Below, piece by piece: positions 43,103-45,661 of a stretch of DNA of 64,000 nucleotides (the first letter of the stretch is position 1; each line of letters opens with the position of its first letter). The translations under genes and the position numbers were made by a program. The notes under the pieces were generated by a model. It searched no databases and had not been told where the DNA came from. It saw only the letters and a list, made by a program, of their open reading frames with translations. Source of the DNA: Escherichia phage S127 BCL3; the sequence record OQ626344; one strand, written 5' to 3'.

Positions 43103-44499
43103 CACACAAGCCTGCTTTGCAGGTTTAGCTGCTCAGCTAAGGTTCTGGCGGCACCTATAACATCTTCCAACTAAATTTCCTACCAACACAGTTACTTACC
43201 CACCACACATGACTGTTTGCTTGTTTAGTGAGCAGTCATCCCTTGACATTCTTGCCTATCTTGATAAAATTAAGTTCTTCTCTTTTCTTTTACCGAGTAA
43301 TTCGGGTTTTCTGTTCTCTTCGGTTTGAAGGGGTATGGAGATACACCTGAGTGAACAGGGTGAACAACCGAACCTTTAGCTATGGCATTAGCATGGCGAA
43401 GCGGACGGGTGACGAAAGAGGGGCCGGAGGACACCAGTCACTGCCATATAGTATATGGGTGATAACCTGAAGAGTCTGAATAAGTGTTTAAGTACCAGTC
43501 AGAGGAAAAGGTGAATGGTAGCCGAAGGGGGAGGGGGGTTTCTTATATCTTTAATTTGTATACTTTATATACACTTGTAAACCAATTCAATTAGGATCTG
43601 TTTACCACACAAAGTGGATGGAGACAAATATCACCTATTAAACTTGAATTATTTATAGAAAATACCACAACACCACTTAAGTATTTGATTTTACACACAA
43701 ATCTTACAAATATCCTACCTCCATATTTAACATACTTGTAACATATCCCATATCCTACCTGCCTGGTCAATTTACTCCCACCACATCCCCACATTTTCCC
43801 TGTCTGTACTACCCCACCCCCGCCGGGAGTCCCGTCATATCTGGCTTCCCAGCAAATATCACACCCACAAATATCATCACCTGAAGAGGGTTTCATCCCA
43901 TAATACACACCTTGCCTGAAGAGCGCTTCATACACCACCTAAATTTTTTAATTGACCCCTCCCCGCCGCCGGAGAGGTTGGCTTTTCCCACACAGGCCTG
44001 AAGAGTCAGCCAGAAATATCTGAACAGGTCCAGTTATACCCCGATTTTGTGCTTGTCCTACAGGAGTGCTGCCCTGTCAGGAGCCGGTAGCGACTGGAGT
44101 GCTGCCAGGCGGACGGAATGGGAATACTTCTCATTTTTATAATAATTCTCAAATATCGAGGCAGTGAGGCAAATTAATAGGCCAGGCCGTTCACACAGTG
44201 GCACAACATTTGCAATCTATCTTGTGGGAGTGAATGAGAATACCTATCATTGTGAGAATGGTTATCATTACGGGCAATTTAACATAATACCCATTATGCG
44301 CACCACTGGCGATACATACAGGGATTGATAACATGGGTTACTGTTTACGCATATAACAATTATATTTCTTACTATTTGTGTGGGATATAGTTAGCAACCA
44401 ATAGATTAGATATTGACCTGCGGACTTCTGACCGTCCAGACGTCTAAACGCCCACACAGCAAGGATTATACATACATTTCTGAATGTAAACAAGGCCGC

Positions 44500-44700
44500 A
44501 AAAATGCTACCATACCAGTTTGTAAATTTTTCATGCAGCACTTGACAAAGAGGAGAAAAACTTGTCTGACACAATGTGACAAAATTACCACTTTTGACAC
44601 TTTTACCTTTGACGCAATATGACACAATAACGGCTGTTACTATTCCATATCTCACTGTTTACGCATAGGCTGTTTACGCCTGAACAGTTTACACAGAGAT
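44500..44700. repeat. iteron cluster: six TGACA-type boxes and three GTTTACGC/GTTTACAC repeats
   Basis: cttgacaaa, ctgacacaa, gtgacaaaa, ttgacactt, ttgacgcaa, atgacacaa within about 100 bp, then tgtttacgc x2 and agtttacac. Confidence 0.6.
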
Positions 44701-44705
44701 GATAA

Positions 44706-44998
44706 GCCATGCCATTCGTTTGCATGAAAACAATTAACAAGCTAACAATTAACAAGTTAATAATCTTTCGCTGGCTATGCCAGGTGACTAGGTCACCCCT
44801 TCGGGCGTTTCTATGACATAATATAAAAGCAGGGCAACTATTAGAAGATCTATAGTTGCCTTGCTTGTTATGTCATGATTAACTAAATACAAGGCAACTA
44901 TGATCTGAGTAATAGATTGCAGAAAAACTATCACGGGGGTGATGGTTACTGCTTTTATATTATGTCGCGACTCCGTCGCGCCATGCCATTCGTTTGCA
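44706..44998. repeat. 20-bp direct repeat pair flanking an 18-bp perfect inverted repeat and nested palindromes
   Basis: GCCATGCCATTCGTTTGCAT at 44706 and 44979; GACATAATATAAAAGCAG at 44815 with reverse complement at 44950; palindrome GCAACTAT..TATAGTTGC. Confidence 0.7.
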
Positions 44999-45609
44999 TA
45001 GTTGCCTTATTGTTACAGGTAAAACAATTACATTATTAATTATTTCTTATCTTTCTCTTAGTCATCTAATGATTCCAGTCAGTATAGTAATGTACAGTAA
45101 ACATTAGACGACTAAAGATTTCTCTGTTTATGATAACTCATCGTGATAATTTCGGACTGTTTACGAAAAATGTTGACACCTGAGCTGATTTATGTTATGC
45201 AGTTTACACGAATAATTATTTTATGCAGGTATTGACTATTCCGTTATTCTGTGGTTGGAATAAATACTTTGCAGACTATAGAATGGCGTTCGTACGTGAA
45301 TTCTGAGATCTGTCGGCTATAGTTATACTCGATTTTTCGCGTAGAACACGCTTTCGATGCTGTGTAAGTGTATGACTTATAAAGATTTTTAGTTGTTGAC
45401 AAGATATTGGAGATATGCATCAGGTTAAAATTTGTGCAATAGCTGCATTACGTGCACTTTTGGGAGAGAAAACGGGTAAAAATGGACTTGCTACCACACA
45501 ATGAAAAATTATGCAATAGTTATTTTCCATGTATATTTGTACAGTATGTGGGATTGATAGCTAGTCAATTATTCCACTTGCCAGGTAGGGCCGTTTATGG
45601 TAGGAGAAG

Positions 45610-45643
45610 AGCAGACAAAAAGAAAGGGGCCTTTAAGCCCCTT
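45610..45643 (-). terminator. rho-independent terminator (minus strand)
   Basis: AAGGGGC-ttaaag-GCCCCTT followed on minus strand by TCTTTTTGTCT. Confidence 0.55.
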
Positions 45644-45661
45644 GATAATTCAGTTAAGAAA

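Follow-up and report, generated by a model that had tools for sequence, protein, structure and literature searches.

A probable genome-end junction with a short direct terminal repeat in the non-coding gap of rV5-like coliphages

We analysed a 64,000-nt stretch of Escherichia phage S127 BCL3 (sequence record OQ626344), an rV5-like coliphage (Vequintavirus); this whole stretch is called the window below. Our subject is a gap of 2.5 kb at 43103-45660 that lacks convincing open reading frames (ORFs) and that, judging from sequence comparison, very probably is a genome-end module, the concatemer junction of a phage whose unit-length chromosome is packaged with short direct terminal repeats (DTRs). 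Plus-strand genes stop at 43102 and minus-strand genes at 45662, so that both gene blocks converge on the gap; the flanking genes belong to PHROGs without assigned function. About 121 phage records match the gap at 86-98% identity, most of them without annotation there, and the rV5 genome paper (2013) drew its equivalent as an ORF-free box labelled 'non-coding'. A first-pass annotation made from the letters of the window had likewise seen no convincing ORF here and had described a region dividing a plus-strand operon from minus-strand genes. Both statements agree with our results, the two blocks moreover facing each other across the gap.

The coding status of the gap was assessed in an alignment of 18 relatives. 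To look for small proteins, 25 ORFs of 30-115 aa were examined for a conserved frame and for codon-position bias, and all failed: third-codon-position bias appeared in 0 of 25 (all p > 0.36), against p = 3e-9 to 4e-13 for four neighbouring control genes, and most gap ORFs are interrupted in relatives. No transfer RNA (tRNA) or transfer-messenger RNA gene was found in the gap. Although non-coding, the gap is as conserved as the genes that flank it, its variability being concentrated just outside the two boundaries of the putative terminal repeat. At its right edge a 139-aa gene (45662-46081, minus strand; PHROG 12277) is absent from Gotham, HdK5, SYGMH1, ev146 and FV3; this presence or absence among relatives marks the right edge as a site of gene gain or loss.

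Two relatives deposited independently, Gotham and HdK5, carry the same 459 bp at both ends of their records (annotated as repeat_region in Gotham), and this sequence maps to window positions 44108-44566 with 95.9% identity. Terminal redundancies of 458 bp have been reported for EdH4 and HdK5 (Korf 2019, PMC6563267). The records of bov11CS3, HdK5 and YN3 begin at the base equivalent to 44108, and several deposited genomes begin or end within the gap. By homology to these mapped relatives we infer that 44108-44566 is the DTR of this phage, the left virion end beginning GGCGGACGG and the right virion end closing with AACTTGTC. The assembly would have merged two DTR copies into one, and the window therefore reads like the junction in a replicating concatemer, in the order right-unique arm (43103-44107), DTR, left-unique arm (44567-45660).

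Conservation follows these proposed boundaries closely. Only 23% of alignment columns vary within the DTR, and invariant bases run across both of its edges (GGAGTGCTGCCAG before and GCGGACGG after the left boundary; AAAAACTTGTC before and TGACACAATGTGACA after the right one), next to the most variable sequence of the gap, namely the stretch 44030-44107 with its indels and, at 44577-44700, an array of CTGTTYACGC type whose copy number changes. Together, the shared record starts and the invariant boundaries set beside variable sequence argue indirectly that the ends are fixed and sequence-specific, not permuted. The right-end box was also considered as a promoter and rejected, since TTGACA is present but an acceptable -10 element follows it in no lineage. 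Inside the DTR lie two GAGAAT..TATCATT boxes (~44238-44273). Phages navn and naswa have an annotated 'repeat_region' of 36 bp (4237-4272 of locus L001) that appears, by coordinate offset, to match this tandem pair; KPP-1 has two AATGAGAAT boxes within its own DTR, and such internal boxes may be a conserved protein-binding motif.

The same architecture recurs in sister lineages. KPP-1 (Mydovirus) has a 514-bp DTR, supported by twofold coverage and by PhageTerm, which classed it as T7 type (PMC9862379); the gap around it is likewise convergent and poor in ORFs. The record of KP12 begins exactly at the mapped KPP-1 boundary, and at the DNA level homologs of the KPP-1 gap occur throughout Mydovirus and Seunavirus. 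PVP-SE1 has a convergent ORF-free gap of 2.27 kb with a syntenic right flank. With blastn, the KPP-1 and PVP-SE1 gaps show zero similarity to the window; despite this, the same parts stand in the same order in the window, KPP-1, PVP-SE1 and an uncultured lineage that we call type B. Upstream of the DTR are same-strand CCTGAAG(A/T)G motifs and C-runs; the left box, at the very start of the repeat, reads G(C/A)GGAC; the right box reads TTTGTAAATTT...TTGACA, a purine-rich stretch, then TTGT, with the terminus 1-2 nt past TTGT in both lineages whose ends are mapped. A variable short-repeat array belongs to the layout as well, as does a long inverted repeat with perfect arms, 250-400 bp further right. 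Among the readings offered by the first-pass annotation, that of a packaging or terminal-repeat boundary is supported by the 459-bp repeat of relatives mapping inside the region and by an arrangement held in other Vequintavirinae genera, and the comparison with relatives that it had proposed finds both the convergent ORF-free gap and the end architecture across those genera. As a positional anchor for such comparisons a conserved 101-aa protein (41264-41569) proved useless, its KPP-1 homolog lying 36 kb from the DTR. KPP-1 (3195-3230 of locus L022) and PVP-SE1 (895-923 of locus L148) each have a plus-strand promoter-like TTGAC(C/G)-N17-TGCTAYTMT that overlaps CCTGAAG/GTCAGCC and faces the DTR; promoters directed at the junction may thus be a common feature, also where the 265-nt element described below is missing.

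The inverted-repeat element is held as a structure. In the window its predicted DNA fold has -41.1 kcal/mol (z -10.5 against shuffles), and the counterparts reach z -11.1 in KPP-1, z -9.9 in the type-B lineage and z -12.9 in PVP-SE1. The type-B arms are 17 nt long and share GACATAATA with the window; beyond that, changes in one arm are matched in the opposite arm (covariation). The FV3 record (locus L021) has one copy of the 20-bp direct repeat that bounds the module in the window and lacks all that lies between the two copies there, the inverted-repeat element included. This loss is either the product expected from recombination between the 20-bp repeats or an assembly artefact. Coordinates of all features are collected in Table 1.

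Table 1. Features of the convergent gap and its surroundings, in window coordinates
Feature	Position	Strand	Remarks
ORF-free gap between two converging gene blocks	43103-45660		equals the rV5 'non-coding' box
Near-consensus sigma-70 promoter with extended -10 (predicted)	43243-43270	+	TTGACA-N16-TGATAAAAT; directed towards the DTR
Purine-rich, nearly invariant block; candidate ~265-nt non-coding RNA	43277-43541	+	pyrimidine-rich 5' end; G5AG6 (43527-43538), then TTT
AT-rich spacer (~33% GC)	43542-43700		variable 43550-43630; invariant 40-nt core 43634-43673
C/A-rich tract (C 31%, G 12%)	43600-44029	+	C-runs; AAATATCAY pairs 43853-43881; CCTGAAGAG at 43880, 43915, 43997
Indel-prone segment left of the DTR	44030-44107		ACWGGAGTGCTGCC duplicated (44060, 44093); last 13 nt, GGAGTGCTGCCAG, conserved
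Putative 459-bp DTR, single collapsed copy	44108-44566		defined by the record ends of Gotham and HdK5
Right-end box TTTGTAAATTT ... CTTGACAAAGAGGAGAAAAACTTGTC, then putative terminus	44519-44566	+	conserved in KPP-1 (mapped terminus), PVP-SE1 and the type-B lineage
TGACA boxes, then array of CTGTTYACGC-type units	44567-44705	+	period 14-15 bp; 1 to 7 copies between relatives
Module bounded by 20-bp direct repeat GCCATGCCATTCGTTTGCAT	44706-44999		entire module missing in the FV3 record
Branched inverted-repeat element	44815-44966		outer stem of 18 perfect bp; nested hairpins built on GGCAACTAT
Conserved AT-rich block (30-35% GC)	44987-45250		GTTTAC boxes 45159, 45202; invariant runs 44987-45015, 45058-45074, 45092-45116
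Intrinsic terminator closing the minus-strand gene block	45624-45643	-	equivalent annotated in Gotham, HdK5, Murica and PVP-SE1

Almost all of the sequence elements listed in the first-pass annotation were recovered, at or within 1-2 bases of the coordinates given there. The strand-composition switch it described is visible in the GC skew, which is +0.27 to +0.33 at 43300-43600 and then -0.57 at 43600-43900 (skew changes at the gap were ascribed to transcription orientation in the rV5 paper). The motif CCTGAAGAG, which it had counted four times in 43460-44010, begins at 43466, 43880, 43915 and 43997, with a fifth copy at 42806 and all copies on the plus strand; five CCTGAAG in 1.2 kb have P ~2e-4 after correction for the number of windows. 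Of the six TGACA-type boxes five are exact (44543, 44567, 44577, 44595, 44620) and the sixth reads TGACG (44611), the window-corrected P for five TGACA in 80 nt again being ~2e-4. The repeat type placed at six positions between 44343 and 45215 corresponds to GTTTAC boxes at 44343, 44657, 44672, 44687, 45159 and 45202 (six in 900 nt, window-corrected P ~2e-4), and a further one lies at 43600. The 20-bp direct repeat is present with 100% identity (44706-44725 and 44980-44999, the second copy starting one base later than noted), as are the 18-bp perfect inverted repeat (44815-44832 / 44949-44966) with its nested palindromes and, at 43243-43270, the TTGACA-N16-TAAAAT promoter. To the right of the inverted-repeat module, 44987-45116 forms a second tightly constrained non-coding block (invariant runs of 29, 17 and 25 nt) that has no promoter or known motif.

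The left arm contains a nearly invariant sequence behind a predicted promoter, an element for which a discrete non-coding RNA (ncRNA) is the explanation we lean towards. The promoter at 43243 matches consensus at 11 of 12 positions, has TG ahead of its -10 hexamer and is the sole near-consensus promoter of the gap; its hexamers are kept among relatives while the spacer varies in sequence and in length (16-18 nt). Among 18 genomes that differ by 10-15% elsewhere, the block at 43277-43541 is better conserved than the flanking genes, with two invariant runs (81 and 79 nt). The invariant sequence sets in 7 nt past the -10 hexamer and runs up to G5AG6-TTT, beyond which similarity collapses. A type-B homolog, ~70% identical and present only in IMG/VR and metagenome contigs, keeps its own promoter (TTGCAA-N17-TGCTATAAT) and the terminal G-run, and one CCTGAAGAG copy and a GTGAACA direct repeat within the block are kept both there and in the type found in the window (type A). 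A search of IMG/VR through the flanking protein returned only 3 loci, and a 17-base pattern gave 120 metagenome matches, mostly chance, of which 9 were true homologs after nhmmer filtering. In one type-B contig, IMGVR_UViG_3300045988_159287 (7716-8486 of locus L007, plus strand of the locus), the interval from the element to the C-rich tract exceeds that of the window by ~750 bp and holds a 256-aa ORF.

Types A and B are separated by frame-breaking indels, and the block has no coding signal. When six sequences of each type were folded jointly, the consensus had 99.4% of cells paired and 8 pairs changed on both sides, compared with 0-4 in slid controls, the structure having been derived from the same alignment in which the compensatory changes were counted; one of its long-range helices shows a G-C to C-G swap. 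Rfam 15 at gathering threshold gave zero matches in the gap, and relaxing to E 10 added only chance-level matches to microRNA models, none of them in 43277-43541. Three specific identities were rejected: a host origin or antisense target (blastn against 5,426 E. coli genomes gave no match at E up to 10); a hammerhead at CUGAAGAG (CUGANGA core), where no Rfam hammerhead matches and just one copy has a helix and GAAA behind it, the closing pair being a G-G mismatch; and a CsrA sponge, the GGA count of the purine-rich RNA being about that expected from base composition (our estimate, not a tool result). Several points tell against an RNA. The single-sequence folding energy of the block is no better than that of shuffles (z -1.4), types A and B fold differently when taken separately, and the covariation rests on one A/B split; the 3' end is set only by the stop of conservation (G-run and TTT), with no canonical terminator; and a DNA-level role through protein binding is possible for the invariant block. 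No vequintavirus transcriptome was found in our literature search. Candidate roles of the predicted RNA include a trans-acting regulator, a primer or R-loop former and an aid to junction processing. That it represents a new class of phage ncRNA tied to the adjoining genome end, for example by an R-loop at G5AG6 that opens the junction for priming or terminase loading, or by a part in DNA maturation, is quite doubtful at present; if it did, the CCTGAAGAG motifs could be read on the transcript and not on the DNA.

From these parts we propose how the junction may work. The terminase would recognise the junction, with the same-strand CCTGAAGAG array, the left C-rich tract and the left and right boxes as the best candidate signals, and would cut at 44107/44108 and 44566/44567, the two boxes being the putative cut sites. 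Because the junction holds one copy of the repeat and each virion needs two, the repeat must be duplicated, conceivably through staggered nicks with strand-displacement or hairpin-primed synthesis as proposed for T7, for which models with strand displacement or a hairpin intermediate have been put forward (PMC4281155). The highly stable inverted-repeat element 250 bp rightward is a candidate structural or priming element in this scheme. As a separate unit of the left arm, the strong host-type promoter at 43243 would drive a ~265-nt purine-rich transcript towards the junction.

The genome-end interpretation must be tempered by several considerations. The termini of this phage are taken from relatives 86-96% identical here and not from its own reads, and we found no documentation of the basis on which ends were placed in the Gotham, bov11CS3 and YN3 records. 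The rV5 paper termed the genome circularly permuted, and a 2026 vequintavirus paper (PMC13211470) gives a PhageTerm headful call. FV3, if its record is not an assembly artefact, lacks the inverted-repeat module, which may then be dispensable, and what the CCTGAAG array, the boxes and the inverted repeat do in the scheme above is entirely inferred. Published statements on vequintavirus packaging are at odds with one another: permuted (2013), headful by PhageTerm (2026) or with fixed ends of 458-459 bp (2019; GenBank MT682716, MK373780).

A replication origin is another explanation, a modest possibility and one compatible with the junction, not exclusive of it. The right arm, with its 14-15-bp array, 20-bp repeats, inverted repeat and AT-rich 45000-45250, could be an iteron-type origin, or the left arm, where a promoter and a G-rich transcript running to G5AG6 are followed by an AT-rich stretch, could be a transcription-primed origin in the manner of ColE1 RNA II or the promoter-dependent origins of T7 and T4. 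Repeat clusters beyond chance, AT-rich blocks (30-35% GC at 45000-45250, ~33% GC at 43540-43700), an order of promoter, G-run and AT-rich sequence kept in types A and B, and an inverted-repeat element kept as structure in four lineages all speak for it. The gap, however, contains no perfect DnaA box (TTATNCACA), and one-mismatch sites number 7 in 43475-44474 and 0 in 44567-45660; no recognisable initiator gene adjoins, the flanking genes having no assigned function; the supposed iterons differ in copy number and sequence among close relatives; KPP-1 and PVP-SE1 have no counterpart of the promoter and G-rich unit; and the rV5 paper links the skew changes here to transcription orientation.

It is unlikely, though worth weighing, that 43277-43541 acts as a DNA site and not as RNA, for example in recognition by the terminase small subunit or in nucleoprotein assembly, the promoter hexamers being then incidental or serving to open the DNA. 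The block lies ~570 bp from the left cut site, retains one CCTGAAGAG copy and the GTGAACA direct repeat in both types, and has a weak thermodynamic fold signal, all of which a DNA site would accommodate. Such a site fits poorly with a conserved block that begins exactly at the predicted transcript start, behind hexamers kept across spacers of 16-18 nt, with 250 bp of near-total invariance that far exceeds typical binding sites, with compensatory changes in long-range pairs, and with the absence of the unit from KPP-1 and PVP-SE1 although these share the boxes at the termini.

The first-pass annotation had also suggested control of DNA injection as in T5; on such a reading the repeats and palindromes near the first-entering end would halt transfer until pre-early proteins are made. 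We regard this as highly improbable. The likeness is general, consisting of repeats and palindromes near a direct terminal repeat; the repeat is 459 bp long and gene-free here, versus ~10 kb with pre-early genes in T5 (PMC10644984), and no gene lies between either end and the repeats. On either side, transcription of the closest genes runs towards the end and starts at promoters lying deeper in the genome, which would leave a stalled DNA end with nothing to express; the two-step logic of T5 is inapplicable. Equally hard to credit is a decayed or fast-evolving, recombination-prone spacer that merely terminates two converging operons: indels and variable arrays do occur at 44030-44107 and 44577-44800, and the neighbouring gene 45662-46081 comes and goes among relatives, but most of the gap is conserved at or above the level of neighbouring genes without codon periodicity, and its layout recurs from genus to genus.

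Earlier accounts already record the non-coding box (2013) and, in a single sentence of 2019 and a few GenBank features, the short terminal redundancy. We did not find described the placement of the ends inside that box, the anatomy common to four lineages, the covarying inverted repeat, the directional CCTGAAG array or the invariant promoter-driven element; as a kind, the locus is a short-DTR concatemer junction with one component that may be new. The rV5-like phages are among the most often isolated coliphages and are used in typing and in therapy cocktails, while their chromosome is still often called permuted or headful and the start point of most GenBank records is arbitrary. True ends and cutting signals would give correct genome coordinates and an account of the 2.5-kb 'empty' region noted since 2013, and would define sequences to retain when these phages are engineered or rebooted. 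The candidate RNA, conserved above any neighbouring protein gene and without a known family, is a concrete and cheap experimental target.

Two further observations were made. In the tRNA cluster at 1600-2411, ARAGORN reports a 99-nt tRNA-like gene (1844-1942, minus strand) with a four-base anticodon (atcc) and no amino acid assigned, which scores only 35.5 bits with the Rfam tRNA model. About 19 GenBank records of the MG0656xx series (e.g. locus L017; UNVERIFIED, unannotated) bear the name 'Campylobacter phage'. They are ordinary vequintaviruses with 87-92% identity to the region studied here, and their host label looks doubtful.

The cos site of lambda consists of a cut site, cosN, and the terminase-binding R sites of cosB, and the pac sites of SPP1 and P1 have repeated boxes; the window resembles these in its same-orientation short motifs (CCTGAAGAG, 4-5 copies, putative sites) beside a predicted sequence-specific cut, and differs in that its ends would be long direct repeats and not 12-nt cohesive ends or headful cuts. 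Promoter-dependent (R-loop) origins include those of ColE1 (RNA II), the T7 primary origin, T4 oriF and oriG, and the mitochondrial G-run of conserved sequence block II. The left arm has a similar order of strong promoter, predicted G-rich transcript to a G5AG6 run and AT-rich stretch; its promoter and G-run unit is missing in sister genera that share the termini. The packaging RNA of phi29, the pRNA, may be compared as well: in the window, too, a promoter-driven ncRNA gene is predicted beside a genome end. The replication and packaging system differs, and a packaging role here is pure speculation.

A further close parallel is the junction of T7 and T3. The T7 terminal repeat is flanked by short-repeat arrays, and the window is alike in its fixed ends (as proposed), its short identical repeat at both ends with one copy per junction, its promoter towards the junction, its short-repeat arrays beside the repeat and its hairpin-capable sequence nearby; the relative KPP-1 is classed as T7-type by PhageTerm. 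The T7 concatemer junction is reported to be a place where T7 RNA polymerase pauses or terminates. The repeat measures 160 bp in T7 and ~230 bp in T3-like phages, compared with 459 bp here, set inside a 2.5-kb ORF-free module between converging operons; and unlike T7, a 40-kb podovirus with its own polymerase, this phage is a 137-kb myovirus that uses host RNA polymerase and sigma-70 promoters. T7 shows zero sequence similarity to the window junction. For the duplication of short terminal repeats, a process unsettled even in T7, the conserved anatomy of motif array, end boxes and inverted-repeat element would offer a second, non-T7 system of study.

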